DNA from: a virus
Virus record (IMG/VR): IMGVR_UViG_3300035181_001974
Length of the DNA stretch: 46,874 nucleotides
Direction: 5' to 3' (one strand)
Part shown: positions 8,492-31,535 of the stretch, in pieces
Numbering within the stretch: the first letter of the stretch is position 1
Layout: every line of letters begins with the position of its first letter
Position numbers and translations under genes: made by a program
Notes under the pieces: model-generated
The model's database searches: none
The model's input: only the letters and a program-made list of their open reading frames with translations
Told to the model about the DNA's origin: nothing

Positions 8492-10399
8492 TCACTTCAA
8501 CATCACCTTGGGTTGCGTACGGGCGACAGAGATGTGAGGAATCTTGACCTTGCCGTCCCATTTGCGGTGCCAGATCCAGCCACCGAGCTTGTCCTTGAGC
8601 TCCTTTGCACGAGCTTCGATCATCTCGTCGGTGACCTGTGACCACGGGACATCGAACATCATGTTATTCTCTGCAACGTCGGAAGTGTCCCTGCCCCACA
8701 GGCCGTTCCAGTGGTTCTGCCAGTAGTCACGGTAGAGGCGGATCTTACGAGGAAGATCGTACCATGAGTAGTGGAAGACGCAAGGCAGTCGGTTCACTGC
8801 AGCGTTGAACCACAACTGATACTGGAGGAGGGCGTTGTTGTCGCCCATGATCGCAAATTGTCTGACGCGTTCCACGTCAGGTGTGTAGAACGACACGTGA
8901 GGCAGACGCTCGCCAGTCTCTTTGTCGATCATGTCGCAACCATCAGTGCCAGGCAGCGCCATCGGGTGCCCGTCTGCATCAGTGGTTCGTAGTTCACGGG
9001 GAATCCCGTGAGTGATGTTGGGCTTGTTACGCGACAGCCGCCACTTCCACGGCTGAATGTCAACGCGAACCTTTTCGGGTCCGCCCCAATACTCGATGAC
9101 GGGCAGTGACAACACGTCTGCCTCGCGGGGAATCTTACGGCACAAGTCGATCACCTTTGCTGCGTCGTCCTCGTGAACGATCTCGTCGGAGTCCATCTGC
9201 CAGCAGTACTCACTGGTGCACATTGCTCGGGCTTCGGCCTTTTGCATGCCGTCAAAGACCGCGTGACGTGGATGAGACCAATCTCGCGGAACCTGCTTGA
9301 CTTTGAGGATCGGATCAGTCGAAGCCAAGAACTGCAACGCTTGCCAGGTACCGTCAGTGCTACCACCGTCGACTACGCAAATCTCGTCGCAGAACTCTGC
9401 CATCGACAAGATAGCCTCCTTCCACGGGTACTTTTGGGTGACGCAGTTGTAGACGGTCATGTAGCCCGAGATGGTGGGCTTGTAGTCCATCATGTGCTTG
9501 ACACCATTCCAAAACATGGCGCGGGCTGCAAACAGATAATCCTTGATGCTTTCGAGATCATCGGTGTTGAACCATTCCTCGTCCTTGTGTTGGACGTGGT
9601 CGTTGAGGTGTAGCTTGCAACCCAATAGCTTGGCTTCAATGACCATGCGAGGGCAGGTGTCTGCCCCATTCGGCAGGTAGACAAAGCCTTCTGCCTTCGA
9701 GAGTTGCTCGAGTAGCTCGTGGTAGGGAACGTTCCAGACCACGTGGTAGTCCTTGCCGTTGTCCATGCACCACTTCTCAGCAGCACCGGCACCCTTGACC
9801 CAAGAGTTCGAACCCAGGACAATCCACCCCTTGCGTTCCGCAGGTGCGTTGGCACGCAGTTTCTCGATGAGGCCCAAGGTTTCAGGTGAAAAGACGCTAG
9901 AGAGGACGACGTTGTCCTTTTCTGCCAAGAATGGGAATACTGCGTGGTAGCGTTCCTTCTGCTTCTCTGACATCCACCAGAGCCCCAAGGAACCATAGTA
10001 GAACGCGGAGACCAGCTTGCCGTTGTTCTGGTTGTGACAGTCACAAGGAGTCTTCGTGGCGTCAAAGTGCTTCTCTGGAGAACGGAAGCGACAGTACTTG
10101 TAGTCGTACTCGAGGACCGTGTACTTCAGGTTGGCAACGATGCTGGGGATCAACTGGGGATTAATGTCAGCGAAGTTGCCGAAGATCCAGAACTTGTCAG
10201 CTCCCTGTTCAAGGGTCTGCAGCGTCAGGTCACGAGTGTGCAACTTCTGCACCTTGACGGGACTGGAATCGATGAGTGCCTGCGATGTGAGTTCCGCACC
10301 TCCGACGTAGTCTTCGACGAACATGTCTGAGACAAAGACGACCTTTGCGTCATCTGCGATGCGAGCGACTGGGGATTTGAAGATCTGTTCGTCGAACAC
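8492..10399 (-). CDS. large bifunctional glycosyltransferase (N-terminal GT-B-like region plus C-terminal GT2 domain)
   Basis: C-terminal MTVYNCVTQKYPWKEAILSMAEFCDEICVVDGGSTDGT is a GT2 signature. N-terminal EGFVYLPNGADTCPRMVIEAKLLGCK is GT-B-like. Confidence 0.6.
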   Translation of the reverse strand: MFDEQIFKSPVARIADDAKVVFVSDMFVEDYVGGAELTSQALIDSSPVKVQKLHTRDLTLQTLEQGADKFWIFGNFADINPQLIPSIVANLKYTVLEYDYKYCRFRSPEKHFDATKTPCDCHNQNNGKLVSAFYYGSLGLWWMSEKQKERYHAVFPFLAEKDNVVLSSVFSPETLGLIEKLRANAPAERKGWIVLGSNSWVKGAGAAEKWCMDNGKDYHVVWNVPYHELLEQLSKAEGFVYLPNGADTCPRMVIEAKLLGCKLHLNDHVQHKDEEWFNTDDLESIKDYLFAARAMFWNGVKHMMDYKPTISGYMTVYNCVTQKYPWKEAILSMAEFCDEICVVDGGSTDGTWQALQFLASTDPILKVKQVPRDWSHPRHAVFDGMQKAEARAMCTSEYCWQMDSDEIVHEDDAAKVIDLCRKIPREADVLSLPVIEYWGGPEKVRVDIQPWKWRLSRNKPNITHGIPRELRTTDADGHPMALPGTDGCDMIDKETGERLPHVSFYTPDVERVRQFAIMGDNNALLQYQLWFNAAVNRLPCVFHYSWYDLPRKIRLYRDYWQNHWNGLWGRDTSDVAENNMMFDVPWSQVTDEMIEARAKELKDKLGGWIWHRKWDGKVKIPHISVARTQPKVMLK

Positions 10400-10497
10400 T
10401 GTGTGCCTCTTTGCGAGACTCTACCCCATGGTGTGTCCCAGTGTTCAAGTCTTCGAACCCGTGAATGATGCGCGCGACGTATTACTTAATTGCGGAA

Positions 10498-10640
10498 CTG
10501 CTCCTTAGCTCTTAATCGAACTGTGGACTGCTCTTAAATTTCAACATCTAGTTTAGATCTGCTTAAGAACTCTTAATCGAACTGTGGACTGCTCTTAAAT
10601 TTAACGTCTAGCTTAAGACTGCTTAATAGCTCTTAATCTT
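10498..10640. repeat. iteron-like array: five CTGCT(C)TTAA motifs at 30-31 bp phasing inside two 61-bp tandem direct repeats (10509-10569, 10570-10630) plus a partial third
   Basis: Read directly. ctcttaatcgaactgtggactgctcttaaattt occurs at 10509-10541 and 10570-10602. The CTGCT(C)TTAA motifs start at 10498, 10528, 10559, 10589 and 10619. The region is AT-rich and lies between divergent gene blocks. Confidence 0.8.
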
Positions 10641-10693
10641 AAGTCTTAATCGGGCGTATACCCGCGATTCGTCGACGCGAGAAGGACCAACTG

Positions 10694-11230
10694 ATGCCCA
10701 CCAAAAAGCCAGGAAGTGCACGAGGATCTGCAGCTCGTTTGATTGGAACAGACCTAGACACGACCCGAGTCCTTGCAGAGATTCAACAGAAGGTGAACTC
10801 CTCTCCGGCACTCAACGGCGGGTTCGACACCCTTCTGTACAAGGTTGACAAGATCGAAGAGTCGCAGGGCAAAATCGTCTCGACTGTCGACAAGATCCAC
10901 GCGGCGATCTATGAACCTGACACGGGCCTCTTCTCCAGGATCAACACCGTGCAAGCCACAGCGTCCAAAGAAAATGGCGAACTTGAGAAGCAGTTGATCG
11001 AGCTAAACACCTGGAAGGCACAGACCGAGAAGTCAGCCCAGGAAGACAAAACGTCAGATGAAGCTCTGGTCAAGAAAGTCGAAGAGCAGCAGAAAGTCAT
11101 CGAGCAATTGACACAGTGGAAGGCCACAGTTTCAAAGGTCGGTGCATGGATCGGTATGGGATTCGGCGGTGGCGCTGTCACTTTGCTTTTCAAGATCCTG
11201 TATGATGTATTGACGACACACTGGAAGTGA
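10694..11230 (+). CDS. coiled-coil protein with a C-terminal transmembrane segment
   Basis: GAAGGA Shine-Dalgarno 8 nt upstream. Heptad-rich EKQLIELNTWKAQTEK..., then a hydrophobic VGAWIGMGFGGGAVTLLFKILY. Confidence 0.55.
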   Translation: MPTKKPGSARGSAARLIGTDLDTTRVLAEIQQKVNSSPALNGGFDTLLYKVDKIEESQGKIVSTVDKIHAAIYEPDTGLFSRINTVQATASKENGELEKQLIELNTWKAQTEKSAQEDKTSDEALVKKVEEQQKVIEQLTQWKATVSKVGAWIGMGFGGGAVTLLFKILYDVLTTHWK

Positions 11231-11233
11231 GCG

Positions 11234-12484
11234 GTGTACTATGGTCCCGTGAACTCTGGGACCCAAGTCTACCTCCAGGACGACGTTAGAGCGGCATTGC
11301 ACCGCCTCGTTGGACGTCTGCGGCTACTAACGCAGAAAGTTCAGGATGATGTTCTAGTCTCTAGGGATGATCGTAGCCTTATCCATACCCGGTTCCAGAT
11401 GTTGTTCAACCTGCGTTTGGCTGATCCACTCGAGGCCAGGCTACTAGAAATCATCATCGGCCATGCGGTAGCGGCTGAGAAGATGGGACCCGGTGCCTTC
11501 GACATGACTCTCGAGAGGCTGCTAGAAATCATCGAACTGTTCTTGAAGGGTATTACGCCACTTGATTTTCAAATAAATCAGAATGTCATCTCGAGGCCGG
11601 CGACCGCAGACGATATTCGAAGGTGTGTCATTGATCGTGTTAAGAAGGTCGACAAGGTCGCCGGCGACATGTTGACAGATGCGTTGGAACTTGCGGGTTT
11701 CGGCGGGCGTATCATCGTAGAGAAGACGCATGCATTGATGCCGTCTGTCGAACTATCGCGTGGATATTCGTTTGACACGGTGGCTGCCTGGCAGCTGACA
11801 GCTCGTCTCGAGCAACCCAGGGCTCTCGTTATCGATGGTTACATCGAACAGGTCTCAGAGATTCATCACCTCCTCGAGGCGGCCAATGAGGCCAAAGAAC
11901 CCATCATCATGTTCGTCAGAGGCCTGTCACAGGAGGTACTTCACACTCTGAAGGTCAACTTCGACAGAGGTTCTTTGAAGGTCGTTCCAATCATCGTCAA
12001 GTTCGACCTCGAGGGAATTAACTCTGTCAACGATCTAGCGATCGTCACGGGCTGTGACCTCATTTCCAGCAATAAGGGTGACCTCATCTCTGCCATCAAG
12101 TTCGAGTCAGCACCACGGATCGAGGCTGCCCTCGTCTATCCCAACAAGGTGGTGTTGCAGCACTCAGCCACTCGAGCTCGTGTTGCAGAACACGTGGCAT
12201 TTCTTCGTGATAAACGCAGCAAGTCGAACGTGATCGAAGACGTTGGCAAGCTCTATGACAAACGAATCCGCTCTCTATCACCGAGTCACGTGGTGATGCG
12301 CCTGCCAGACAACAAAGACTTTGTCAGAGTCTCACAGTCGATTGACGTGGCGCTGAGAACCATCAAATCATTGGTCGATCATGGTGTGACAGCCGAAATG
12401 CCGACGGCCGCCAGGGTGGCGGCCGCGGTGCATGCGCAGAAGTGCTACGAGACCTTGGCCTCGCTAGGTGCGCTGCTTGTCTGA
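11234..12484 (+). CDS. divergent truncated chaperonin (GroEL/Cpn60-like; intermediate and apical domains present, GDGTTT nucleotide-binding motif and C-terminal equatorial domain absent)
   Basis: LSRGY aligns with GroEL [55 protein letters not shown] aligns with GroEL [62 protein letters not shown] aligns with [26 protein letters not shown] aligns with AVAAGMNPMDL. The position matching GDGTTTATVLA reads [11 protein letters not shown]. Confidence 0.65.
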   Translation: [416 protein letters not shown]

Positions 12485-13537
12485 CTTTTTGATTTCAGCG
12501 AGCACACGCTCCACATCGTAGAGGTTCAACCCTTCTTTGCGAATACTGTAGCCCATCTTCTTGCCCAGGTCGCGGATGGCAGCAATGACCCTAGCCGCAT
12601 CGTCAGCTTTGATCTTGTTGGGCAAACGGGCCGCCAATCGACCAGCGAGGTCCTTGACTTGATCGTCGTTTAGGCCCTCACCACCGGCCTTGGGTGCCTC
12701 AGCGGGCTTCTCGTTGCTCTTGGCGGCAGGAGTTTCGCCTGAGGTCGTCGGTGATGCGGTCTTTGCTCCGCTGGGAGCCTCGCCTGACTTGCTCTCGCCA
12801 GATTTTTTCTCTCCACTGACGTTGGCACCCTTTTTCAAATCGTCTTTCAGTTCTGGTGCAATGTCAGCGGTCTTGGGACCGGCCTCGATCGTCTGCTGCG
12901 CCTGCGTCAAGGCCGCGATGGGCGACGTCATGATGTCGTTGACGAGACCTTGAACGTCTGCGTAAGGCAGTTTCTTGAAGGCTCCAAAGAGGCCACCAGG
13001 CGTGAATGCCTTTATCAGCATGCCTTGAGCAGCTTGAATTTTGTCATTTGCTCCCGGCGTGCCAGCGGCAACGTTGTCGCCGCCAAGGCGGTCCTTGAGG
13101 CTGTCGCCTTCTGCCTTTTCGATCTTCAAATTCTTGACAATCTTTGGCAGCAGCTGAAACCCACGTTCCAGTGCGCTCGCAAGAGCCATCGCCTTGACAA
13201 TCGGATTTTCGCCGCCTGACAGCTTCGACTTCATCTTCTGCCAGGCTCGACCGATGCTTCCACCGCCCGTGTATTTGTTGATGTCGTTGGTTGCTGCGTC
13301 GACTGCGGCCTTCAAGGACTTGGCGTTGGGCAGCTTTGACACGAGATTTTCGAGCTTGTCGAGGACGGCGGATGCCTTGTTGAGCTCCTCTTCGTCCATC
13401 GCCTCAACGATCAAGCGGGCTACGCGGTGCTCTTCGAGCAATTCAGCATTGATCCGTGAGACTTTTTCCTGAAGGCGCTGCAACCTGCGAGCCTCGTACT
13501 TCTCTTTGAGCGTAATGGCCATTTTATTGTTCCTCAC
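12464..13537 (-). CDS. hypothetical Ala/Lys-rich coiled-coil protein (antisense to all neighbouring genes)
   Basis: 1074-nt ORF with a strong AAGGTGAGGAA Shine-Dalgarno upstream of the ATG at 13537. The plus strand here has only three short unrelated ORFs. Confidence 0.6.
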   Translation of the reverse strand: MRNNKMAITLKEKYEARRLQRLQEKVSRINAELLEEHRVARLIVEAMDEEELNKASAVLDKLENLVSKLPNAKSLKAAVDAATNDINKYTGGGSIGRAWQKMKSKLSGGENPIVKAMALASALERGFQLLPKIVKNLKIEKAEGDSLKDRLGGDNVAAGTPGANDKIQAAQGMLIKAFTPGGLFGAFKKLPYADVQGLVNDIMTSPIAALTQAQQTIEAGPKTADIAPELKDDLKKGANVSGEKKSGESKSGEAPSGAKTASPTTSGETPAAKSNEKPAEAPKAGGEGLNDDQVKDLAGRLAARLPNKIKADDAARVIAAIRDLGKKMGYSIRKEGLNLYDVERVLAEIKKSDKQRT

Positions 13538-13586
13538 CTTTTACTAGGTAAGTAGGTGTGTTACCTTCATCATAGGATCCACATTC

Positions 13587-13841
13587 ATGCAACCCAAAGA
13601 CAAGATCGGCAAGGCGGCCTGGAATCAGATGCAGGCCATGAGGGACTCAGTGGTCAAGGACGTCGCCGATGCAATCCGTGACGGCAAGGTTGAGGCAGCG
13701 ACAGCTCAGCAGCTGTTGAACCTCATTTCTGCCTCAATCGAAGCTGGTTATCACAAAGGTTTCAGCGTCTTTGACAAGGAAGTTGATGCAGCGTTGGGGG
13801 AAGCCGCAAAGGATCACCGCCCAACTACGAAAAAAAAGTGA
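13587..13841 (+). CDS. hypothetical protein (84 aa)
   Basis: ORF; lysine-rich C-terminus. Confidence 0.4.
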   Translation: MQPKDKIGKAAWNQMQAMRDSVVKDVADAIRDGKVEAATAQQLLNLISASIEAGYHKGFSVFDKEVDAALGEAAKDHRPTTKKK

Positions 13842-13865
13842 GCTGGTGGTCCAAATTCATCAAGG

Positions 13866-14354
13866 ATGTCAGGTTTAGGGTCGGGTGACATGCCATCAGG
13901 TCTGAAACACCTCATCCGTTGCCGGTGCGTGATGCCGCAGTTCAAGAACTTGCCGGAGCCGCCGCCGCATCAGTTCGTCGTCTTTTCGATCATGGGCGAT
14001 GACGACAAGTTGATCGTGAAATATGCGCAGTGCAATAACTGCGGACGCATTCACAAGGTCATTGACGTCTGTAAGTCAGAGGTCACTGGCCGTGAGGCCT
14101 TCAGCTCTGTCATGACGATCGATGATGTCAAGGCATCACTGCCAGCAAACCTAGCCAACATCCTGGACGTCAATGGCGCCGACCTGCCAACCTGGGAGGC
14201 AGCACAATTTATCTATGAGAACAAGCGCTGGGGCGAGTTTGTGGTGTTGGCCACCGACGTTGAAGAAGGCACGCGCCAAGGCAAATACGTTCAGATCTTG
14301 GGAGAGAATCTTTTCAAGGTCAATGCATTCTCACGCGAGGAGTACGCAAGGTGA
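13866..14354 (+). CDS. hypothetical Cys-rich protein (possible zinc ribbon: RCRC...CNNCGRIHKVIDVC)
   Basis: ORF with clustered Cys pairs. Confidence 0.45.
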   Translation: MSGLGSGDMPSGLKHLIRCRCVMPQFKNLPEPPPHQFVVFSIMGDDDKLIVKYAQCNNCGRIHKVIDVCKSEVTGREAFSSVMTIDDVKASLPANLANILDVNGADLPTWEAAQFIYENKRWGEFVVLATDVEEGTRQGKYVQILGENLFKVNAFSREEYAR

Positions 14355-14602
14355 ATCAGCTGTACGGAAAGTCTGAGTCGGACCGCCGTGCGGAAGAAAA
14401 CCAAGTCGCTCGTCAGATCGTCAGCGAGATTGGTAACTTCGGCGTCAATGAGCGTCAGCGAGTGCTCATCATGTATCTTCTTGCTATGGAGCTAGAGAAC
14501 GTGGAGAACCTCAAGGCCTTCACGAGTATCATCAAAGAACGTTGCGGAAAGGACGTCTTCCTTTCTGATGGAGAGGAACCAGATGGGTCGATCGATCGGT
14601 GA
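14351..14602 (+). CDS. hypothetical protein (83 aa)
   Basis: ORF; ATGA overlap with the upstream gene. Confidence 0.4.
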   Translation: MNQLYGKSESDRRAEENQVARQIVSEIGNFGVNERQRVLIMYLLAMELENVENLKAFTSIIKERCGKDVFLSDGEEPDGSIDR

Positions 14603-15249: not shown

Positions 15250-16911
15250 ATGCCTAAGCATGACTACGTGCGGTATTTTCCGTTCTCTAATATCCGTGAT
15301 GAACAACGGAAGGCAATTGAGTTTGCACTCGATGCCTACGAGTCCGGCAAGCGCTATGTCATCCTCGAGATGGGCACGGGTTGTGGCAAGTCCGCGACCG
15401 GCGTCTGTATCGCTCGTTACCTTGAAGCACACGGTGAGGTGACACTCGATGAGGAAAACATGCCTCTGTCGGGTGCTTACATCCTGACGACGCAGAAGGT
15501 GTTGCAGCAGCAGTATCTCGATGACTTTGGCCCAGGCGTTGGCCCAGCTCGTAACCTGATGCGCAGCATCAAGTCGTCGACCAACTACCAGTGCGGGTTC
15601 TATCAAGACCAGACGTGTGCTGAATCCCGACGTGTGCTGAAGCAGCTCGGAAAGCGAATCTTCGGGACCGAGTTTCAGAAGCACTGTGGCAAGGGCGGCT
15701 GCTGTAGGTACGCCAAAGACAAGGCTGACTTTCTGGAGTCGCCCATCTCCATCACCAACTTCTCGTACTTCCTCTCTGAGACGACGTACGGCAAGCAACT
15801 GAAGCCCAGGGCATTGTTGATCGTCGACGAGTGTCACAATACCGAGCAAGAGCTCGGCAAGTTCATCGAGGTCACCTTCTCTGAGAAGTTTGCTAAGCAG
15901 GTGCTGAAGTGCCGCGTGCCAGTCCTGAACACTCAGGAGGCCGTCTACGAGTGGATCTCAAAGACGTATAAGACGGCCTTGGGTAAGTATATCCGCAACG
16001 TTGAGAAGGAGTTGCAGTCAAAGTTCGACTCTTCTGGGTCAGGCTTTGACGACCTCAGCAAGCAGTACGAGATGCTCGACAAGCACATTTGCAAGGTCAA
16101 TCGCTTCTTAACGGCATACAAGCCCGACAACTGGGTGATGAACGTGGTGCGGCCGCCCGCTGGGGCTCGAGGCATGCGAAAGTTCGAGTTCAAAACCATC
16201 GATGTCTCAGAGTTCAGTTACGATTCGCTGTTCAGGATGGGCGGGCGGACGTTGATGATGTCAGCGACAGTTGTTGACAAGGACGTCTTTTGCAAGTCGA
16301 TTGGCCTCGATCCGGTCGACGTGGCGTTCCTCAGCATTCCGTCGCCTTTCCCACCCGAGAATAGGCCAGTGCACTACATCCCAGCTGGGTCAATGTCGAT
16401 GGACAACATCGAAAAGACACTGCCCGCTCTTGCAGAGGCTGTCAAGATGTTGATCGACCAACACCCGAATGAGAAGGGCATCATTCACTGCGTCAACTAT
16501 CGTATCGCTCAGTATGTCAAGGACCACGTTAAGTCAAACAGGTTGTTGAACCACGATTCGACCAACCGCGATGCAGTGTTGCATCAGCACCTCGAGGGTA
16601 CCGACCCAACGGTGTTGCTGTCGCCGTCGATGATGGAAGGCGTTGACCTCGCTGATGAAGCGAGCAGGTTCCAGATCTTGTGTAAGGTCCCGTTTCCGTA
16701 CCTCGGCGACGCAGTCATCAAGAAGCGAATGGCCAAGAACAAGGCATGGTACACGTATCAGACGGTCAAGTCGATCATCCAGGCGATGGGTCGATCAGTT
16801 CGCAATGAGACTGACCACGCTGTCTCGTACATTCTCGACGCAGACTGGGAAAGGTTCTACAGGATGAACGGGCGTATGTTCCCTGAAGAGTTTTCAAAGG
16901 CGTTGTCATAG
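15250..16911 (+). CDS. SF2 DNA helicase, XPD/Rad3/DinG-like, with a 4-Cys FeS insertion
   Basis: Walker A EMGTGCGKSATG, DExH LIVDECHN, motif VI QAMGRSVRNETDHAVSYILD. Cys cluster QCG..QTC..HCGKGGCC lies between motifs I and II. Confidence 0.65.
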   Translation: MPKHDYVRYFPFSNIRDEQRKAIEFALDAYESGKRYVILEMGTGCGKSATGVCIARYLEAHGEVTLDEENMPLSGAYILTTQKVLQQQYLDDFGPGVGPARNLMRSIKSSTNYQCGFYQDQTCAESRRVLKQLGKRIFGTEFQKHCGKGGCCRYAKDKADFLESPISITNFSYFLSETTYGKQLKPRALLIVDECHNTEQELGKFIEVTFSEKFAKQVLKCRVPVLNTQEAVYEWISKTYKTALGKYIRNVEKELQSKFDSSGSGFDDLSKQYEMLDKHICKVNRFLTAYKPDNWVMNVVRPPAGARGMRKFEFKTIDVSEFSYDSLFRMGGRTLMMSATVVDKDVFCKSIGLDPVDVAFLSIPSPFPPENRPVHYIPAGSMSMDNIEKTLPALAEAVKMLIDQHPNEKGIIHCVNYRIAQYVKDHVKSNRLLNHDSTNRDAVLHQHLEGTDPTVLLSPSMMEGVDLADEASRFQILCKVPFPYLGDAVIKKRMAKNKAWYTYQTVKSIIQAMGRSVRNETDHAVSYILDADWERFYRMNGRMFPEEFSKALS

Positions 16912-16989: not shown

Positions 16990-17241
16990 ATGGATACCGA
17001 CAATCAGGTGCTTGCTAAGTGGAATGAGATCAAGGAAGTCATGTCGTCGATCGAGCTTGATGTGGCGAAGAACGCCCGCGGCACCGCAGCGGCCGGCGTG
17101 CGTGCCCGGAAGGGTCTGCGGACTCTGAAGATCAAGGCGACGGAGCTCGTCAAGCTGACGGTCGAACTCGACAAGGTCAAGAAGACTGAGAAGTCGGCAA
17201 AGGCCTCGAAGGCTCCCGGCAAGGCGCCCAAGAAGTCCTGA
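16990..17241 (+). CDS. histone H1-like nucleoid protein, Hc1 family
   Basis: VAKNARGTAAAGVRARKGLRTLKIKATELVK aligns with Chlamydia Hc1 KAEKGNKAAAQRVRTESIKLEKIAKVYRK. Lys/Ala-rich tail. Strong AGGAGG Shine-Dalgarno at 9 nt. Confidence 0.6.
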   Translation: MDTDNQVLAKWNEIKEVMSSIELDVAKNARGTAAAGVRARKGLRTLKIKATELVKLTVELDKVKKTEKSAKASKAPGKAPKKS

Positions 17242-17700: not shown

Positions 17701-17975
17701 CGGCTGGCTCGGCGGATTTTCTCGTAGATTCCCTTTTCAATCTGACAAATCCTCATCCTTGTCAGGCCGTAGATCTTTCCGATCTCTTGCAATGTATGAG
17801 GACCTTCAGACGCTGCGATCATGACACAATTGTGACCATCAGGATATGAGATCCAGTGCGGACACCGCTTCCGTTGACAATCAATGTCGTGTCTTGAGAG
17901 TACTGAAAAACACGTGGCGCCTTCGACGATGGTTCCTTCTTGGACAACGTTGAGGCGCCTCTTTCCATTCTGCAT
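17697..17975 (-). CDS. sigma-70 region 4-like HTH regulator with an N-terminal Cys/His-rich module (92 aa; the track ORF's N-terminal 75 aa are rejected)
   Basis: HTLQEIGKIYGLTRMRICQIEKGIYEKIRR resembles sigma-70 region 4.2 (TLEEVG..GVTRERIRQIE..ALRKLR). AGGAG lies 10 nt upstream of the ATG at 17975. A longer start would overlap the PhoH 5' end. Confidence 0.55.
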   Translation of the reverse strand: MQNGKRRLNVVQEGTIVEGATCFSVLSRHDIDCQRKRCPHWISYPDGHNCVMIAASEGPHTLQEIGKIYGLTRMRICQIEKGIYEKIRRASR

Positions 17976-18008
17976 CACCACATATCTCCTCTTGTGGTAT
18001 ACAGTAAC

Positions 18009-18024
18009 GTGAGGAGGCATTCTT
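18009..18024. promoter_or_regulatory. perfect 16-bp palindrome ATTCTTGTACAAGAAT in the divergent promoter region
   Basis: Read directly. It is its own reverse complement and lies between the sigma-like regulator (minus) and PIN-PhoH (plus). Confidence 0.6.
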
Positions 18025-18103
18025 GTACAAGAATCCGATCCGATCGTACTACTGAGGTAGTGGTAACGGTGACGACAGGAAGAGAGCCCCGGAGATACAC
18101 ACT

Positions 18104-19498: not shown

Positions 19499-20617
19499 AT
19501 GATCGGGCCGGGAAACCGGCCCGACTCGCATGTCCGGTGGCCGCTGATTCACGGCTGCCGTATATTTGCTGTTGACATGGCGGGAATACTCGACAGCAAG
19601 ACACGCATTCTCGATACCATCGTAACGTTGGAAGGCCGCAAGCAACTGGCCAATGGTGGCATCAACATCAAGTACGTGTCTTTCACGGACGGCGCGACGT
19701 TCTACGCCGCCGACCTGGTCTCGGGTTCAACTGATGCGACAGCCAGGCTTTACCTCGAATCGTGTCACCTGCCACAGGATCAGGTGACCTTTCAGGCCGA
19801 CGATTTGGGTCGAGTGCTGCCATTTGATGCCTCGGGTGATCAGGTCGTCAGGTCCGGTCAGATCATTGACTACTCATTTGTTGCACCCTCAACGTTGACA
19901 TTGACGGGCTCGGCGCTGCAAGGAACTACCTTGCGTGGAGACGTCATGAACGAAGCGGCCCATGGGATCCTGACGGGTGCCATCGACAACTTCGCTAAAC
20001 AGATGTTGATCGGTTCTAGGGATCCGATCTTTGACGATGAGGGCTTTGCACTCGGAAACAATGAGATCGAGTTCGTCATTCACAATGACAGGCCCATTCC
20101 GGCGCAATCGGGTTACTCAACTAACATCAATCACCTCGAAGATGTGTTTGCTGATCCTCGGTTGAGTCATCTGCCGAACTTCAAGTTCCTGCCGCCGATC
20201 AACAAGGTTGAACATGATAACGTTGACAAGTCTGATCACCGCGTCGTCAAAGCATTTGCATTGGGCGACTATCACCCCTGGGGCCGGTCACATGTGTTCA
20301 AGTTCAATCACGTTGACCTGCACCGTGAGCTGATGCATTTCGGCTCGATGGGCTATTCCAAAAAGATCAACATTGATCCAACATCTCGGGCCAACAACCT
20401 GTTCATCCAGGCATTTGAGGTGACCAATGACACGATGTTCAAGCTGGACATCATTGATTTTGGTACCTGGAACACGCCAATGGTGAAAAATTCCGCGTTG
20501 ACAGATCCGAATGACCCAGGACCAGTGTGTCAGATCTTCTTCGTTGGCAAGCTGGTGACCAAGCCGGACACTCAAACGCACGCCTTTGTTCACCTGTTTA
20601 CGTTGTTCTTCGGATGA
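19499..20617 (+). CDS. hypothetical virion structural protein (alternative start at ATG 19577)
   Basis: Long ORF at the head of the co-directional structural block. No motif recognised. Confidence 0.4.
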   Translation: MIGPGNRPDSHVRWPLIHGCRIFAVDMAGILDSKTRILDTIVTLEGRKQLANGGINIKYVSFTDGATFYAADLVSGSTDATARLYLESCHLPQDQVTFQADDLGRVLPFDASGDQVVRSGQIIDYSFVAPSTLTLTGSALQGTTLRGDVMNEAAHGILTGAIDNFAKQMLIGSRDPIFDDEGFALGNNEIEFVIHNDRPIPAQSGYSTNINHLEDVFADPRLSHLPNFKFLPPINKVEHDNVDKSDHRVVKAFALGDYHPWGRSHVFKFNHVDLHRELMHFGSMGYSKKINIDPTSRANNLFIQAFEVTNDTMFKLDIIDFGTWNTPMVKNSALTDPNDPGPVCQIFFVGKLVTKPDTQTHAFVHLFTLFFG

Positions 20618-20621
20618 TCAC

Positions 20622-23081
20622 ATGTACTATCGAGTAAACCGACGCTACAACGTTCTGCAGGTCTCCGATGCGTATGCAACGCTGAAGGACATTCTTCAGG
20701 ACGGCACACTAGACTTTGAATTTCGCTACACAGCGGCGCAGAGCGACCTGGTGAAGCAGGGAACCGTGACCGTCAACGTCAGCGTCTTCACCAAGACAGT
20801 CAAGAAGCGGCCCATTGTCGGCCGAGGACGTCTCGGTAAGATCGACGCCAAAGAAGTGATTCAGAACGTCATCACCGACATGCCCGCCGCCAAGAGCGCC
20901 ATCAAGAGCCGCGAGGACCACGTTCTGGTTTCCAAGAAGAGCGACGCATCGTCGAAGGTCGACAACGAGGCGGTCCCGCTGTTCCTCAGGGGAACGCGAC
21001 CGGCAGCAATTCAGGCGCTGCACGAGGCATACGTCAAGGCGGTCCCAGCAGGAGAACTCATCAGCGCCAACGACAAGAAGCCCATCATTGACGTCACTAA
21101 GCTACAGGTCAACGACATTCACGGTGTGGTCTCTTCGTCGGTCAGCGAAGACACGCAACGCCTGGCTCACCGCTTGATTCTGCAACGTGGGATCGACCCA
21201 TCGGCTGTTTCTGAACTGCCATCTTCCAACATCTACTCGCAGCGAGCCTTTCAAGGAACCAACGAACCAATCCAACGCTATGAACCCGAGCATGGAACAT
21301 TGGCACGGTTGCGCAACCAGTTGACGATTCACCCGGGCCTGCTAGATCCCGTCAAGACGATTGACCAGGTCGAAGAAAATCGTCTCGTCAACATCGTGAC
21401 AACTGAACCCGTCGACAACGTTGAGGTGCCCGTCCGCGTCAAGTTCAAGCCGCCGTCTAAGAAGGTGGGCTCGAGGGACTCATCCGACGTGTTCGTTAAG
21501 TTTGAACTGTTGGATACCACGACCAACCATGCCATCGACACTGTCACGCGGACGCTCGATGTTCCGACGCACGTCCGCATCTTCAAGGTCCCGTTCCTAC
21601 AGCCCAACGTTCAACGCGTCAGGTCAGACATTTCGTCAAGAGCTAACCTAGAGATCGTGCAGGTAGACCCTCGTGCGAACGAGGTTCACATCTTTAAGAA
21701 GTCGATCAACACCGCAGTGGTCAATGACGATGACTACGTCTTGATCGACGTGCAGCAACTGAGCTCAGGTCACAAGACGATTGTTCAGGTTGATTCTCCA
21801 ACGTATGATGCTGCAATCTACCGTGTGGTCCCAGCATACTCGGGCATCGTCGGCTTCACGTACACCAACGTCGTCATTCCTCCCAAGAAGTACCGCCCTG
21901 TCAGGGCATTGGCATTGACCACGTCGATCATTGAGAATGGAGTCTCAGTCGAGGCTCGACGCATTCCACCTGACGTAATCGCGCTGCAATTCCTACAGCG
22001 CAACAAGACGACATTTGAGGATGAATTTTCTCCCATCTCTGACCCACAGTTGATCGACGATGCCGTCAGGCAGGCAGACCACGTTGCAGTCGTCACTCAG
22101 AATGTGCTTGACAACAACGTCTATGAGTTTGCGGCCAAAATGTTCTTCCGCAGCGGCACGCAGGAAACAATCACTGGAGAACTTTTGGAGTACATTCTAG
22201 CCACGCCAGGCAAGGTCGACATCAAGGTCAGCGGTATCAACGTTTCTCACGATACTGAACCCAACGTGACGTTTAGCGTGTCTCTTGACATCGTCGATTC
22301 AAACATTGACGCCGTCAAGGCCTTGCTGGAGCAACAGGGCATCAAGTCGTACTTTGATGGAGACATTGCGAAGCAACGTGATGAGCTCAAGGCTCTGCTC
22401 GCCTACTCGATCCACAGGATCAATTTGATGACGGGCGAACGGGAGGACCTAGGCGTCATCACGCAGCCTGACTTTGATGATTCTGAGGTGCGTAAGAAGT
22501 TTGCCACACAGTCGTTGCAATACGGCCACAAGTATCGCTACGTCATCACCGCGGTCGCTCGAAGCGCTGAGACGGTGCTCGAGAAGCTTGAGAAGAATGC
22601 AGTTGATACAGTGACGAAGAAGCCATACAGCTTCATGCCGTCCAAATTTCTGCATCCACTGACACTGCGGCGCGGGATCATTGTTTCACCTGCGGGTTTG
22701 AAAACAAAGTACTCGAAGACCACGTTCGAACACGGCGTCTTGGGGTCAACGACTATCGTCGACGTCTCTCTCGATGAGACAGAGCCCAGGATCATCGACG
22801 GATCTGTCGTCAGATTCAACAAAGAACTAGCAATTGTCAACTGGCGGGTCGAGGGACCCATGGAGATGATCGATCACTTCATCATCATGAAGGAAGTTCA
22901 CGGTCTTCGGACTGTGCTTGGGACGGCGCACACCACCTTTCAAGGAGGCGTATGCCAGTGGCTGCACAAATTGTCTTCTCACGATCGTGGAGAGTTCAAC
23001 TACGTGATCGTGCCCATGTTGAGCACGTACAAGTACGGTTCGTCGATTACTACCAACTCGCTACTTGTTGAGGATACATGA
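20622..23081 (+). CDS. large virion structural protein (819 aa from the ATG; the track's TTG start at 20586 overlaps the upstream gene)
   Basis: GGATGA lies 4 nt upstream of ATG 20622, and the previous stop is at 20617. Confidence 0.5.
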   Translation: MYYRVNRRYNVLQVSDAYATLKDILQDGTLDFEFRYTAAQSDLVKQGTVTVNVSVFTKTVKKRPIVGRGRLGKIDAKEVIQNVITDMPAAKSAIKSREDHVLVSKKSDASSKVDNEAVPLFLRGTRPAAIQALHEAYVKAVPAGELISANDKKPIIDVTKLQVNDIHGVVSSSVSEDTQRLAHRLILQRGIDPSAVSELPSSNIYSQRAFQGTNEPIQRYEPEHGTLARLRNQLTIHPGLLDPVKTIDQVEENRLVNIVTTEPVDNVEVPVRVKFKPPSKKVGSRDSSDVFVKFELLDTTTNHAIDTVTRTLDVPTHVRIFKVPFLQPNVQRVRSDISSRANLEIVQVDPRANEVHIFKKSINTAVVNDDDYVLIDVQQLSSGHKTIVQVDSPTYDAAIYRVVPAYSGIVGFTYTNVVIPPKKYRPVRALALTTSIIENGVSVEARRIPPDVIALQFLQRNKTTFEDEFSPISDPQLIDDAVRQADHVAVVTQNVLDNNVYEFAAKMFFRSGTQETITGELLEYILATPGKVDIKVSGINVSHDTEPNVTFSVSLDIVDSNIDAVKALLEQQGIKSYFDGDIAKQRDELKALLAYSIHRINLMTGEREDLGVITQPDFDDSEVRKKFATQSLQYGHKYRYVITAVARSAETVLEKLEKNAVDTVTKKPYSFMPSKFLHPLTLRRGIIVSPAGLKTKYSKTTFEHGVLGSTTIVDVSLDETEPRIIDGSVVRFNKELAIVNWRVEGPMEMIDHFIIMKEVHGLRTVLGTAHTTFQGGVCQWLHKLSSHDRGEFNYVIVPMLSTYKYGSSITTNSLLVEDT

Positions 23082-26000
23082 TCAAGACTTTTAAGGTAGC
23101 GAATGACACGGCGATCAAGACGGGATTGGTTCAAATTCAGCCCGCTCAGCCCGCTCGTGCCAACAGCAATAGCGGCACGTCGACCAACAACACGAAGCCG
23201 CCTCCGAATCAAGTTCCTCTTGCCGGCGTCTCAGCGGTCATTGCTGCGCCCGCGGCCTCGAGTCAGACCACGTCGCTCAAGTCAATCGTCAACCCGACGC
23301 TATCATCGTTGGCCAGCTCGATCACAGCTAAGAACTTTATTCTGCCCACCATCGGCGGCGGAGCATCAAAGCTTATCCCAAGTTTTCACATCGATATTGA
23401 CCCGTCCGTGGTCCTGCCATCCTCGTCAGACGCTCTGGCGGTGACGACCAAGAAGTTCGAGCCTTACGAGCTGCAGACAGGCATTTCACAGGAACGGCCC
23501 GAGGTCGTCATGATGACGAACTTCCTGCCGCTTTACAAAAAGACGATCTCGACTGCCAACAACAGCATCTTGCGGTACACGTTGGCCGGCCAGCGTCCGC
23601 AGACTACAGACGCTGGAGAGTTCTTCAATACGCAAGTTGACGTTCGTAGCCTCCGCGTGCATCAGGTCAAACATTTGTTGACTCAGGTCAAGCGTCGTTA
23701 CATGTACCTACGTGCGCAGACCGCTGATCGATCTTCGGCAATGTCACAGGCTTTGAGTGAACTCGAGTCGCTTTCTCTGTACCTCTGGACAGTCATGCGG
23801 ACGCTAGAGAAGTTGAAGCAACAACTAGATCTCCGTGATGACGTTCACATTGTCGATCCACACGAGACGTTGAGGCTTCATCTCAGCACCTTTAGTTCAG
23901 TACGAGCCTTGAGCCTATTGAACTTCTTGACCCCAGCACTGACAACATACTTCCCGCCACAGTATGATGTGCCTCATGCTCTGACATTGTACGGCTACAC
24001 TGAGGAAAACGCTAAGCACACGTATACCTCGAGCAAACTGTGGATGCAGTTGATGCTGGAGTACAAGCACGTCCTGCAGACGCACTCCTTGAACATGCTG
24101 GACATCGATCCTGCACCGCAGCGGAATGATTCATCACCCGTTGCTATCACTCAGACGCCGTCAATCAAGCGCTTCGACTACACCGCGGTCCTCCCAACGC
24201 TGCCAAGCCTCGACTCAATCACGCAGATGCAGCCGCCGCAGATCCCGCAGTACGTCAACTCTCTAATTTCGAGCTACAACACAATTTATCAAGGCGTGTC
24301 GTTCAAGCACCGTGAGATGCAACTGGCATGCTTGATCAATGCCCTGTCGCGGGAGCACAGGTATTCTTTGGGTCTGTCGAAGCCCGAGGTTCAGAAATCA
24401 TTGCAGAGCTACTACGGTTATCAGGTCAGCCCGCAAGGCAATCTGCAGATGTTCGATCGGGTGGTCGGACAGTTTGGTAGCAACATCACAGACTTTCCGG
24501 CACTTCAGTCCAAGACGCTAGCCTCTCTTGCGCAGCAACAAGTTGCACAAAATGTGGCGGTGTTGCCTTTTGAGTCGCGGTACGTGGAAGGTGACACCGG
24601 CACGTTGACCCCGGGCAGCAGCTACTATGTCGATTCTGTATTGCTTACACATGGGAATCGCTATGATGTGACTAGGTTGATTGAGTTTCGTGATGTACTG
24701 CAGAACGCACTGACGAACTTCAATGTCATCGTCGACGGTCTTGATCTACTGCAGTCTGAGTACGTCGATCAGTACTCCAACAGCGCAGGCAAGTTTGCGT
24801 CGCTGATCGCAAATCCTCGTTCGTTGTTTGATGAGATTCGCGCTGAGATGATGACGTCGGATGCGGTGGGCTTGACGCCTGAAATCGCAAATGATCCACT
24901 GCTACCATTGTTTACAGTCGCTCAGTCAGACACTCGACTACGTTCACTGCTGTTGCTCTACGTGGTCACCAAGATGTCGAAAGCTTACCTTCACAACGTA
25001 GAGTTCTTCGATGCGGCGCTTGATCAGGACAACACTCCCACATCTGATGCCTTGGTCGATCTGATCGTGAAGCAGCTCATCTCTGCAACCAAGCAGACGT
25101 CTACGACCTTGTTGGGAACAACGAATCAGAGCCACGCCGCCCGCAAGCCCACGTCGGGAAAGGATCAGCGTACTGTCAACATTGAGACCGTCAGGACTGC
25201 GTTGAAGACGGGCAGTGGCCACTTCTTGGCTGCCGTGATCTCGATGATGGGTCGCCTGTTGGCAACGTTCAAGAGGAACAATGCAGTCTTCAATGGTTCG
25301 GTCACGAGGTACGGCGGTCACCCTGATACCGTCATCTTTATGTCGATCGTTGACATCTTCACGTCATTCATCGACCTCTATGGCGATCGTCACGTGGTGG
25401 GTCAGCACATTGACCAAGGCCAGACGCAATTGATCATTGATGCACGTCACGTGAGTCACACGAACTCAGTCCTGGAGGTCGATCAACGCTTGGGTCGCGA
25501 GATCATGTTGTCAGAGACGTGCAGCTTCACCGTCATGAATAGCTTGACGAAGTTGATTAATTCTGTTAACAATGTCATCAACTATCTGAACGGTCCTGAG
25601 TCGCTGGCGGAATTGCAGAAGGTCACTGGGCTACTTAGTGACCCCAGCATGTTGCATATGTTGCTGAGCGAGCAACAGATCAGGTTGCTGTCGAGTAACG
25701 TTGCTGACCTTAGGTCTGCGTTGGCGGGTCACTCGAGGACGGGCAACGAACCTGGCGACATCAACGGTGACGGTGAATTTGACTCAGACGATGAATTGAT
25801 CGCCCTCGATGATGCTGAGATCACTCCCAAGATCAGACGGGCGATCGACGACATGTTGTCGACTGATGAGTTCACGCAGGCATCAGCAGCCTCGAGAAAG
25901 ATCTTGACTGTCGGAATCCCACTAGGCTTCTCCAGACACCTGCAGCAGAAGGTCGACATCAAGAAGTTGAAGAAGACCTCGTTTGATGTCCGCCAGAACG

Positions 26001-27112
26001 ACGTGGTGAATATCGCCGTCTACAAGGTCGACATGCAGAATCCCGACATTGTCTATAAACCGCAGCGGTTCATGTTTGAGCTGTCACGGTTTCCTGTCAG
26101 GAATGATGTCTATGTCAAAGACAGTCCGGGAGTGTCCAAGTTCGACATTGTCTCAAGATTCCCGACACGAGACGCCAGCCAGGCATTTTCATCGGGCGGC
26201 AGTGTGCAGTACATTCGTAGTTCTGACAACGAGGTTGAGGCGTTGGACGGCGAAGACTATGACTTCTTGACGCGCCAAGAGAAGGATCAACTCTACGTCA
26301 ATCACGTGTTCAGTTATTTGTTGGAGGTTTACCTGCGGACAATGACTGGCATTTCGACCGCTGATTATCACTTCGACATGGTCGATCCACCGCCGCAGGT
26401 GGAGTCCGACTTCGTCAACCTGTTGCTCAACCACTACGTCAATCACGTTTCAGCGATCAAACAACAGGGACTCGATGGAATCAACCGCAGTGGAATCTTT
26501 TTCGGCTCGACCCAGGGTGCATCGAAGGGTTCTGCCAAAGGCGGGTTCGTGTCTCGGGCTGCGGGAGGAGGCACACAGAGGTACCTAGCAAATTCTGCGG
26601 GAATTGCCGGGCTGTCTACTACTGTCGCATTGTCAGGATTTTCTGACTTGACGCCCAACGTGAGGTCATCTGAAAACACGTTGTTGTCGTCGACAGACAC
26701 GGTGCTGGCGGGCCTGCCGGAGTCTGACGCTCCGCTGCTGGTGAACTCTTTCGGTGTTCTGAATGAGTTTTCGCGGATGACCACGCCTCTTGCAGACCCT
26801 CTGGCAATTTCGCAGCGCATCATCAATCCGAAACAGTTCGATCGAGTGTTCAACCTCTTGGTCGATCCTTATTCGTTCGAGATTGACGTGTCAAAGACGC
26901 AGGCCACACCCCATGGGAAGCAGGCGCTGGAACTGATGATCAAGCAAGGCGAAATTGAGCCCACGGCTTCTATGACTAGTCTCAGGTTGGGAAACGCCAG
27001 CCTCAGACCGGAACTGACGTATGTCCAGCGGCGCCGCGATAACGCAGAGGGCGACTTGATCTTCGAGAAGTACATTGTCTCTGTCGAGACAGTTGGAGAG
27101 GACCAGGCCTGA
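23078..27112 (+). CDS. very large virion structural protein (1344 aa; candidate baseplate/tail or tape-measure-like component)
   Basis: ATGA coupling with GAGGA Shine-Dalgarno. Ser/Thr/Ala-rich N-terminus. Confidence 0.5.
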   Translation: MIKTFKVANDTAIKTGLVQIQPAQPARANSNSGTSTNNTKPPPNQVPLAGVSAVIAAPAASSQTTSLKSIVNPTLSSLASSITAKNFILPTIGGGASKLIPSFHIDIDPSVVLPSSSDALAVTTKKFEPYELQTGISQERPEVVMMTNFLPLYKKTISTANNSILRYTLAGQRPQTTDAGEFFNTQVDVRSLRVHQVKHLLTQVKRRYMYLRAQTADRSSAMSQALSELESLSLYLWTVMRTLEKLKQQLDLRDDVHIVDPHETLRLHLSTFSSVRALSLLNFLTPALTTYFPPQYDVPHALTLYGYTEENAKHTYTSSKLWMQLMLEYKHVLQTHSLNMLDIDPAPQRNDSSPVAITQTPSIKRFDYTAVLPTLPSLDSITQMQPPQIPQYVNSLISSYNTIYQGVSFKHREMQLACLINALSREHRYSLGLSKPEVQKSLQSYYGYQVSPQGNLQMFDRVVGQFGSNITDFPALQSKTLASLAQQQVAQNVAVLPFESRYVEGDTGTLTPGSSYYVDSVLLTHGNRYDVTRLIEFRDVLQNALTNFNVIVDGLDLLQSEYVDQYSNSAGKFASLIANPRSLFDEIRAEMMTSDAVGLTPEIANDPLLPLFTVAQSDTRLRSLLLLYVVTKMSKAYLHNVEFFDAALDQDNTPTSDALVDLIVKQLISATKQTSTTLLGTTNQSHAARKPTSGKDQRTVNIETVRTALKTGSGHFLAAVISMMGRLLATFKRNNAVFNGSVTRYGGHPDTVIFMSIVDIFTSFIDLYGDRHVVGQHIDQGQTQLIIDARHVSHTNSVLEVDQRLGREIMLSETCSFTVMNSLTKLINSVNNVINYLNGPESLAELQKVTGLLSDPSMLHMLLSEQQIRLLSSNVADLRSALAGHSRTGNEPGDINGDGEFDSDDELIALDDAEITPKIRRAIDDMLSTDEFTQASAASRKILTVGIPLGFSRHLQQKVDIKKLKKTSFDVRQNDVVNIAVYKVDMQNPDIVYKPQRFMFELSRFPVRNDVYVKDSPGVSKFDIVSRFPTRDASQAFSSGGSVQYIRSSDNEVEALDGEDYDFLTRQEKDQLYVNHVFSYLLEVYLRTMTGISTADYHFDMVDPPPQVESDFVNLLLNHYVNHVSAIKQQGLDGINRSGIFFGSTQGASKGSAKGGFVSRAAGGGTQRYLANSAGIAGLSTTVALSGFSDLTPNVRSSENTLLSSTDTVLAGLPESDAPLLVNSFGVLNEFSRMTTPLADPLAISQRIINPKQFDRVFNLLVDPYSFEIDVSKTQATPHGKQALELMIKQGEIEPTASMTSLRLGNASLRPELTYVQRRRDNAEGDLIFEKYIVSVETVGEDQA

Positions 27113-31298: not shown

Positions 31299-31347
31299 GA
31301 TGATTCTCGACTGGTAAGCAGTCAAACAGAAAGTTGTACGATTTGGC

Positions 31348-31488
31348 ATGCGTTATCAATACACATGCCAAACGTGTTTAAAGCCCTTCGAGTCTTACAA
31401 GAAGGACAAGAAGTTCTGTTCAGTCAAATGTTCCACGGCACGACATGGCCAGGTGACCAACCAGTGTGTCATCTGCAACATCTGACGG
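31348..31488 (+). CDS. small zinc-ribbon-like ORF (46 aa; not in the track)
   Basis: Hand translation: MRYQYTCQTCLKPFESYKKDKKFCSVKCSTARHGQVTNQCVICNI. Three Cys pairs (CxxC, CxxxC, CxxC). An inverted repeat TTGGCATG...CATGCCAA (31343-31371) spans its start codon. Confidence 0.3.
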
Positions 31489-31535
31489 ACTGAGGCCCCC
31501 GATGCAACGGGGTATAGTTATGATGAGGAGCAGGA

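Follow-up and report, generated by a model that had tools for sequence, protein, structure and literature searches.

The 46,874-nucleotide (nt) DNA of virus record IMGVR_UViG_3300035181_001974, read on one strand and here called the window (the whole stretch that was analyzed), carries an array of short boxes with the core CTTAA in the gap between two divergently transcribed operons, and we found that this box is a locus-specific cis-element kept across a phage family rather than a general promoter word, because it is the top 5-mer of this one gap and shows no enrichment in other gaps. The first-pass annotation had described the region as an iteron-like array of the motif CTGCT(C)TTAA and had proposed a replication origin, a partition site, or a regulator-binding site as its function. 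The informative core is shorter than that decamer, a 5- to 6-bp CTTAA(G) box, and of the three proposals it is regulator binding that fits the comparative evidence, the origin being a weak fit and the partition site a weaker one. The array is most likely regulatory. Because the box is confined to one divergent gap, occupies constrained positions with respect to the starts of both genes, and varies in number and orientation, palindromic forms included, the reading that we favor, and to which we give an even chance, is a binding-site array for a putative factor acting on two back-to-back promoters, enlarged in this phage by duplication. Protein binding to the boxes, regulation of transcription through them, and the sign of that regulation are what we infer.

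The gap and its boxes are as follows.

10400-10693, no strand: divergent intergenic region of 294 bp, between the leftward GT2 glycan operon and the rightward coiled-coil/GroEL-like operon.
10485-10489, plus strand: box 1, CTTAA, which reads TTAAGTAATA toward the glycosyltransferase (GT) gene.
10511-10649, plus strand: boxes 2 to 11, CTTAA, at 10511, 10533, 10562, 10572, 10594, 10612, 10622, 10632, 10638, and 10645.

The plus strand of the window holds 16 copies of CTTAA, and 11 of them lie within 10485-10649, all in the same orientation and at irregular spacings of 6 to 29 bp. The longer forms are gathered there too: seven of the eight window copies of TCTTAA fall within 10485-10650, as do all three copies of CTTAAG, the palindromic form represented by the boxes at 10562, 10612, and 10638. 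The Poisson probability of such clustering is ~1e-25, and it is still ~1e-19 when just one repeat unit and the unique flanks are counted. Thus, the possibility raised in the first-pass annotation, that the motif is a common word with no local enrichment, does not hold for a core with 11 of its 16 copies in 166 bp. The remaining copies are inside genes, apart from one in a convergent gap, and none was found upstream of any other gene in the 47-kb window, the terminase and portal genes included. Decayed copies are also visible within the array (CCTTAG at ~10503 and GTTTAG at ~10551).

Relatives of the locus were found by using as an anchor the 178-amino-acid (aa) protein encoded to the right of the gap, which had 22 homologues in one search and led to ~70 loci from Logan, ENA, JGI, and IMG/VR; the motif statistics use the 42 nonredundant gaps with the same gene order. 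Wherever gene calls existed, the order GT2 (minus strand), gap, anchor (plus strand), GroEL-like gene was kept. The relatives with box clusters have anchor proteins that are 37 to 60% identical and genome GC contents of 0.33 to 0.59, and the density of CTTAA/TTAAG is 15 to 65 per kb in the gap versus 0 to 3 per kb in the remainder of each locus. An unbiased 5-mer test of the 42 gaps against their flanks ranked CTTAA/TTAAG first (112 observed versus 7.0 expected) and TAAGA/TCTTA second; the former is 5.6-fold above the expectation from the gaps' own base composition and occurs at least twice in 21 of the 42 gaps. Outside the focal gap, CTTAA/TTAAG showed no preference for noncoding DNA in the relatives, with 9 of 231 copies in the noncoding 5.6% of bases. 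That the box is kept across deep divergence and very different GC contents suggests a phage-encoded rather than a host reader. These comparisons define a cis-element, the CTTAA(G) boxes of one syntenic divergent promoter region, in phages whose GC content ranges from 0.33 to 0.59.

The positions of the boxes relative to the two operons are best followed with the flanking features.

8492-10399, minus strand: GT2-family glycosyltransferase gene, 635 aa, with a GTG start preceded by AAGAGG (Pfam PF00535, 1.2e-9).
10418-10448, minus strand: putative leftward sigma70-like promoter, with a -35 element TTGAAC (10448-10443), a 19-nt spacer, and a -10 element TAGAGT (10423-10418), read by eye.
10651-10666, no strand: GC-rich near-palindrome CGGGCGTATACCCGCG with GTATAC, a candidate operator or hairpin of the 5' untranslated region, from a repeat search.
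10670-10686, plus strand: CGTCGACG palindrome running into CGCGAGAAGGA, with the ribosome-binding site (RBS) GAAGGA 7 nt before the ATG, read from the sequence.
10694-11230, plus strand: gene for a coiled-coil protein of 178 aa with a hydrophobic C-terminal segment and an ATG start, from an alignment with homologues.
11234-12484, plus strand: gene for a truncated GroEL-like chaperonin of 416 aa, the second gene of the rightward operon (PHROG 5725).

As would be the case for an operator array, the boxes lie between two divergent gene starts (GT2 at 10399 on the minus strand and the anchor reading frame at 10694 on the plus strand), they are specific to that region, and they are both conserved and constrained in position. 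On the right-hand side, 22 of the 25 lineages with boxes have the end of the proximal box 14 to 48 nt before the ATG, with a median of 33 nt; the distance is 14 nt in the relative L086 and 18 nt in L012, so the box in these two must overlap the core promoter or the transcription start. On the left-hand side, the first box (TTAAGTAnTA) is 61 nt upstream of the leftward -10 element in the window, L012, and L086, and by eye a TTGAAC-N16-19-TA..AT arrangement is found at the same place in L012, L003, L054, and L011. The leader that follows the boxes on the right comes in two forms. High-GC lineages have ..CTTAAY-(C)GGGCG / CGCG.. and then a GC-rich palindrome and an RBS (TCTTAATCGGGCGTATACCCGCG in the window, TCTTAACGGGCGCG in L012), and low-GC lineages have yTATTTAAGa followed by TAC(T/A)G and GGAGAA. 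In the window, the near-palindrome CGGGCGTATACCCGCG begins just 3' of the last box, the part TCTTAAYSGGGCG is common to the window and L012, and a CGCGAGA-type leader is also present in L003, L051, and L002. Both short palindromes that the first-pass annotation had placed after the array are there, GTATAC at 10656-10661 and CGTCGACG at 10670-10677.

Positions such as these also bear on another idea, that the boxes are -10-like core-promoter elements for a dedicated phage sigma factor or a modified RNA polymerase; the array would then consist of stacked tandem promoters, some facing each way, from which both neighboring operons would be strongly transcribed. A proximal box 14 to 48 nt from the rightward ATG, and only 14 to 18 nt from it in L086 and L012, would suit such an element, and in L024, L040, L077, and L080 the boxes point left near the left gene and right near the right gene. 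Furthermore, the low-GC form yTATTTAAG (CTTAAATA on the other strand) agrees at six of eight positions with TATAAATA, the consensus of the T4 late promoter. However, the motif is missing from every other upstream region in the 47 kb, the terminase and portal genes again among them, and the other gaps of the relatives are not enriched in it; moreover, the orientation of the box toward the rightward gene flips between lineages, and all 11 boxes of the window have one orientation even though the operons diverge. We therefore regard core-promoter elements as an unlikely explanation of the array.

GTATAC recurs elsewhere in the window and may serve this phage as a promoter or operator element. There are six copies in the 46.9 kb (at 10656, 16962, 17997, 29228, and 42158, with one at 24022 inside a gene); four precede plus-strand genes and fall in clear gaps, and the fifth is a short way upstream of the gene at 29296, within a doubtful 61-aa open reading frame (ORF). 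One of these sites stands in front of the gene for an 83-aa protein (16990-17241, plus strand) that matches the chlamydial histone H1-like Hc1 family (PF07432, 8.9e-8); Hc1 is a nonspecific DNA-compacting protein.

On the interpretation that we favor, the boxes (core CTTAA/TTAAG, often TCTTAA or CTTAAG) would be the recognition sites of one sequence-specific DNA-binding factor, probably phage encoded and probably a dimer or multimer on DNA, which would act on both the promoter of the leftward glycosyltransferase operon and that of the rightward coiled-coil/GroEL-like operon. The proximal box would overlap or abut the rightward core promoter, and the GT-side box would sit at a fixed distance upstream of the conserved sigma70-like leftward promoter. 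In the lineage of the window, a 30-bp segment gave rise to a 61-bp unit and this was in turn duplicated, producing 11 boxes, which should raise local occupancy or cooperativity.

Several observations weigh against a binding-site array. The irregular spacing of the boxes shows no strict helical phase. The exact box is absent in 16 of 41 relatives, mostly distant ones or ones with a near variant (TATTTAAC, TATTTAAT). The proximal TTAAG of low-GC relatives overlaps a -10-like hexamer, TATTTA, so that an ordinary promoter may account for some of the signal from single copies. A scan of 10300-10800 for sigma70 and terminator consensus sequences found no match, which leaves the rightward promoter undefined by consensus; the leftward promoter was missed because the scan takes only 16- to 18-nt spacers. 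Close relatives do suggest, in favor of the array, that boxes change less than spacers (6 of 122 box columns versus 87 of 695 spacer columns, Fisher p = 0.013), but this is a small test with boxes defined on the same sequences. Finally, a nearby protein that binds the motif, which the first-pass annotation had proposed looking for, did not emerge from sequence and fold searches of the neighbors. Pfam, PHROGs, and NCBIfam gave no DNA-binding fold among them, PDB profile searches with alignments of three conserved small neighbors gave none either, and single-sequence AlphaFold2 models of the 83-aa and 84-aa proteins among these three (predicted local distance difference test scores of ~70 and ~68) gave generic helical bundles with nothing significant in Foldseek.

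The repeats on which the first-pass annotation had been built are a second, lineage-specific layer over the boxes.

10498-10628, plus strand: five CTGCT(C)TTAA heads, read from the sequence.
10509-10638, plus strand: 61-bp tandem unit, 2.2 copies, with a 33-nt exact repeat within it, from Tandem Repeats Finder (TRF) and a repeat search.

CTGCT does start at the five reported positions (10498, 10528, 10559, 10589, and 10619), the gap having no further copy, and only four of the five copies are exact: the heads at 10528 and 10589 read CTGCTCTTAA, those at 10559 and 10619 read CTGCTTAA, and the head at 10498 is degenerate (CTGCTCCTTAG) and lacks TTAA. Remeasurement of the head spacing returned the same values, 30, 31, 30, and 30 bp, and TRF recovered the two 61-bp tandem units with a partial third (61-bp unit x2.2, 90% matches, score of 207). 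The 61-bp unit is a pair of halves, a and b, that have only the 8- to 10-bp head in common. What did not survive is the meaning given to the spacing, namely, a phasing of about three helical turns: the 30-bp phase of the heads exists because the duplication of a 30-bp segment into a 61-bp unit produced it, and it is not kept in the relatives. An independent Logan contig, L007, breaks exactly within the 33-mer and otherwise matches 10573-10693 exactly, and it supports the right half of the array base for base.

We also compared the CTGCT heads with T4 MotA boxes. The MotA box, (a/t)(a/t)(a/t)TGCTT(t/c)A, lies at about -30 in many T4 middle promoters, with a TAnnnT -10 element 11 to 13 nt downstream; TGCTTtA is similar to the heads CTGCTTAA and CTGCTCTTAA, and the packaging genes of the phage are of T4 type. 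We rejected a MotA-type middle promoter on the grounds that CTGCT is not kept in the relatives, where only CTTAA is, that the motif is found in a single gap, and that no TAnnnT follows the heads at 11 to 13 nt. No protein of the MotA/AsiA family was matched among the window proteins scanned, which come from 47 kb of a genome of at least 309 kb.

Across the family, the number of boxes ranges from 0 to 11, the maximum being that of the window, and both orientation and spacing vary among lineages, with spacings clustering at 5 to 11 bp. Palindromic pairs (CTTAAWTTAAG, CTTAAG) recur among the relatives, as do repeat units of 7 to 11 bp; such units, with palindromic forms of variable number and orientation, are typical of multimeric operator arrays. 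The first-pass annotation had suggested asking whether related phages vary in repeat number and conserve the motif, and the comparison bears this out for variable number and for CTTAA, the CTGCT head not being kept. Tandem repeats in general are tenfold denser in the gap than in its flanks (4.5 versus 0.43 per kb) and are present at 22 of the 42 loci, with unit periods of 7 to 11, 17 to 23, 34 to 36, and 61 bp. Some relatives (L005/L006, L015, L069, and L083) have AGATCT-type units instead. L005 and L006, which have one and the same anchor protein and whose flanks match exactly to the left and right of the repeats, differ only within them (34- to 36-bp AGATCT-rich units at 2392-2485 in L005 versus 2213-2300 in L006). 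L063 has a GATAA-type array at 2819-2894, L054 has four copies of CTTAATCT at 2850-2881, and the contig of L038 ends in a (CT)n run. Three independent assemblies made with k = 31 break in the gap (L007, L015/L016, and L018), as expected because of the repeats, and other contigs with an identical anchor protein, among the matches listed, break inside the repeat.

A rival reading is that most of the array arose by neutral slippage in a repeat-prone AT-rich gap, with one or two boxes (proximal and distal) functional and the 61-bp duplication and the extra boxes carried along as passengers. The density of tandem repeats in the gap, their variable unit lengths and sequences, the units that contain no box (AGATCT in L005/L006, GATAA type in L063), the restriction of the L005/L006 differences to the repeats, and the decay of some window boxes all speak for this. 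Against it, arrays with boxes have arisen more than once, in lineages whose unit sequences differ, and close relatives show less divergence in boxes than in spacers, as given above; the three common cores of the two 61-bp copies are also intact, with all seven differences elsewhere, a distribution that is not significant (p = 0.18). We consider this reading unlikely overall, yet slippage is a plausible source of the extra copies and is partly compatible with a binding-site array.

Taken one step further, the same variability might mean that the gap is a family-wide, fast-evolving repeat switch in which a putative phage factor reads the variable number of CTTAA(G) boxes; the L005 and L006 difference and the 8-bp x4, 11-bp, 23-bp, and 61-bp arrays can be cited for this idea, which we hold to be a long shot. 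If it were true, gain and loss of repeats would tune or phase-vary an operon for virion or host glycan modification relative to the chaperonin operon, and the gap would represent a jumbo-phage contingency locus served by a new pair of regulator and operator. The resemblance is to loci such as the (TA)n tract between Haemophilus hifA and hifB, in that a repeat-prone tract separates two back-to-back promoters and genes of the surface-glycan type are driven by one of them. The units here differ in being mostly 7 to 61 bp long and in having a conserved box, whereas tracts of mono- to tetranucleotides alter the -35/-10 spacing, and copy number switching is a candidate property only, with assemblies that are maybe ambiguous. 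Should repeat number vary within populations, phages would offer here a case of expression tuned by repeats.

The array does lie in AT-rich DNA, as the first-pass annotation had said; it is the most AT-rich and least stable stretch of the 46,874-bp window. Its GC content is 0.33 to 0.35 (0.33 in 10529-10628) versus 0.535 +/- 0.04 for the window, and the least stable 100 bp, 10549-10648, has a stability of -119.9 kcal/mol versus a mean of -145.6 +/- 5.3 (~4.8 standard deviations). DNA of this kind qualifies as an AT-rich unwinding element, and with direct repeats at a divergence point, replication genes within the window (helicase at 15250-16911, primase at 35140-36138, and SbcCD-like proteins at 36199-39434), and a local minimum of cumulative GC skew near 10 kb, it might be taken for a replication origin, either an iteron-like one with a melting stretch or a promoter-plus-unwinding element of the T4 oriF/oriG type. 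Iterons are ~17 to 22 bp long and regularly spaced, and they lie beside or inside an initiator gene, often with sites for DnaA and integration host factor (IHF). The array resembles iteron origins (lambda ori, P1 oriR, R6K/pSC101-type plasmids, T4 oriE) in being made of same-strand direct repeats in AT-rich, easily melted DNA. It differs from them in its core of 5 to 6 bp and its spacing of 6 to 29 bp, far from three or more direct repeats of ~17 to 22 bp with ~22-bp spacing, and the 30-bp phased head, of which only 8 to 10 bp are shared and which is not kept in the relatives, does not make up for this. Nor is an initiator gene adjacent, the neighbors being GT2, coiled-coil/membrane, GroEL-like, and small helical proteins with no Rep-like match, and the gap contains neither a DnaA box (TTATCCACA) within two mismatches nor an IHF consensus (WATCAANNNNTTR) within one.

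Gap length argues in the same direction. The homologous gap can be as short as 53 bp with one box, or 53 to 80 bp with one to three boxes, and many relatives have gaps of 53 to 110 bp with one to seven boxes, which must already fit two promoters and two RBSs. Cumulative GC skew in the 46.9-kb window turns at 4, 10, 20, and 34 kb, and its deepest minimum, at 34 kb, is inside a uniformly oriented gene block; because skew turns within uniform gene blocks, it is uninformative about an origin in this window. Two claims made for the location also need qualification. The first-pass annotation took the array to be in the only long noncoding stretch, and by crude ORF mapping there are other apparent gaps of 230 to 400 bp, at 17701-18103, 31299-31535, and 281-510. 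It also put the array exactly where transcription switches from the minus to the plus strand; the array is indeed between the minus-strand GT2 gene and a plus-strand ORF, with another minus-strand gene (12464-13537) beyond the switch. We judge an origin to be quite improbable, and the case is a caution that AT-rich repeats alone are poor ground for calling origins.

Two window-wide features of composition were noted alongside these values. TTAA is strongly depleted, with 42 copies, 12 of them in the array, where a rough estimate from base composition predicts ~137, and GATC is overrepresented, with 385 copies versus ~180 by the same rough estimate.

In style, the closest parallels are the arrays bound by ribbon-helix-helix (RHH) proteins, namely, the omega heptads of pSM19035, the 8-bp metboxes of MetJ, the 11-bp ParR-parC repeats of R1, and the ParG boxes of TP228. 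Such operator and centromere arrays have cores of 4 to 8 bp in 2 to 10 or more copies, variable in number and orientation, placed over promoters and occupied cooperatively, and the 7- to 11-bp unit periods and the direct, inverted, and palindromic pairs of the relatives would be in keeping with them. The array differs from RHH systems in that searches near it turned up neither an RHH protein nor any other binder, and no partition NTPase is present; the comparison is an analogy rather than a claim of homology. Another possibility is a centromere-like partition site, as a phage genome that is plasmid-like or actively positioned would have, and a short-repeat array upstream of an operon is reminiscent of the parC, parH, and tubC sites. 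However, the operon and the 47-kb window contain no ParA, ParM, TubZ, or PhuZ-like NTPase or adaptor, the downstream 416-aa protein is GroEL-like and not a cytomotive filament protein, and the T4-type terminase and portal are what a lytic jumbo myovirus would have; a partition site is highly improbable. A looser analogy is the early/late switch region of phi29, where p4 and p6 sites lie between the divergent A2b/A2c and A3 promoters. There too, multiple sites occupy an AT-rich segment between divergent operons, and the sequences and the phage group are unlike ours. The array, conserved across the family and unusually expanded in this phage, is best read as a set of binding sites between divergent promoters with a putative reader.

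Other readings of the repeats were rejected. The sole Rfam match, to HgcC, was at chance level and under the threshold, there are no tRNAs, and the RNA fold z-scores were +0.45 on the plus strand and -2.4 on the minus strand, the latter explicable by the palindromic boxes, so a structured RNA is not supported. A CRISPR-like array was discarded since the repeats have only the 8- to 10-bp head in common and there are no spacers. By eye, none of the CIRCE, sigma32, extracytoplasmic function (ECF), or SigB patterns fit.

Searches for the locus elsewhere returned little. Neither the gap DNA (blastn) nor the 178-aa protein (tblastn) matched any of 50,697 phage records, and the exact 33-mer was not found in IMG/VR. 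An IMG/VR scan for three TCTTAA copies with gaps of no more than 14 nt gave >120 unrelated matches, mostly AT-rich or giant-virus contigs, and was uninformative. GTDB genomes contained no relative of the anchor protein, and hence there is neither a host clue nor a prophage copy. A full-text literature search found no description of the motif or the locus. To our knowledge, almost nothing is known of gene regulation in uncultured jumbo phages; in these phages the box could serve as bait for the protein that binds it and as a guide for promoter mapping, and it opens the question of how a phage couples a glycan modification operon to a chaperonin operon.

The two operons are themselves only partly recognizable. 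GT2 is the first gene of the leftward glycan cluster, a minus-strand group of sugar-nucleotide, glycosyltransferase, and methyltransferase genes to the left of the array. The 178-aa protein had no family or structural match in Pfam, PHROGs, and PDB searches. The 416-aa protein matches GroEL in PDB down to 6e-11 and in NCBIfam at 1.8e-16, under the family cutoff; it aligns to GroEL residues ~150 to 417 (the apical/intermediate region), with scores far under family cutoffs. Its gene always follows that of the 178-aa protein, except in the distant L048, L050, and L084, where it is upstream of the anchor gene.

The window comes from a jumbo phage with a T4-type terminase and portal. A protein identical to the 178-aa anchor is present on contigs of up to 309 kb, and the large terminase is ~40% identical to those of Flavobacterium and Microcystis myophages. 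The window also encodes a ClpP-like protease, an XPD-like helicase, a primase, SbcCD-like proteins, and a PIN-PhoH fusion. The portal gene, of gp20 type (PF07230, 1,503 aa, 42225-46736, plus strand), has two intein-splicing stretches and two HNH_3 endonuclease domains inserted in it and is therefore an essential structural gene with two apparent inteins. The PIN-domain/PhoH-like ATPase fusion (PF13638 and PF02562, 18104-19489, plus strand) follows the 403-bp apparent noncoding stretch 17701-18103. Four large plus-strand ORFs of 831, 1,344, 635, and 835 aa (20586-29019 and 31536-34043) had no significant match in Pfam, PHROGs, or NCBIfam.

A second divergent gap, 13538-13586, separates a minus-strand 357-aa gene from a conserved 84-aa gene; it contains no CTTAA box, and its motif ACCTACTTAC..AGTAAA is common to the relatives L002 and L003. 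To its right, at 13587-14602 on the plus strand, are three small proteins kept across relatives and without a known fold or family: the 84-aa protein is helical with a KKK tail, a 162-aa protein has four cysteines (CxC...CxxC) and 66% mean column identity, and an 83-aa protein is predicted to have three helices and has an invariant RQR motif. In the relative L002, a 70-aa gene with a Pfam Acb5 annotation (PF26761) lies beside the glycan genes, at 97-309.

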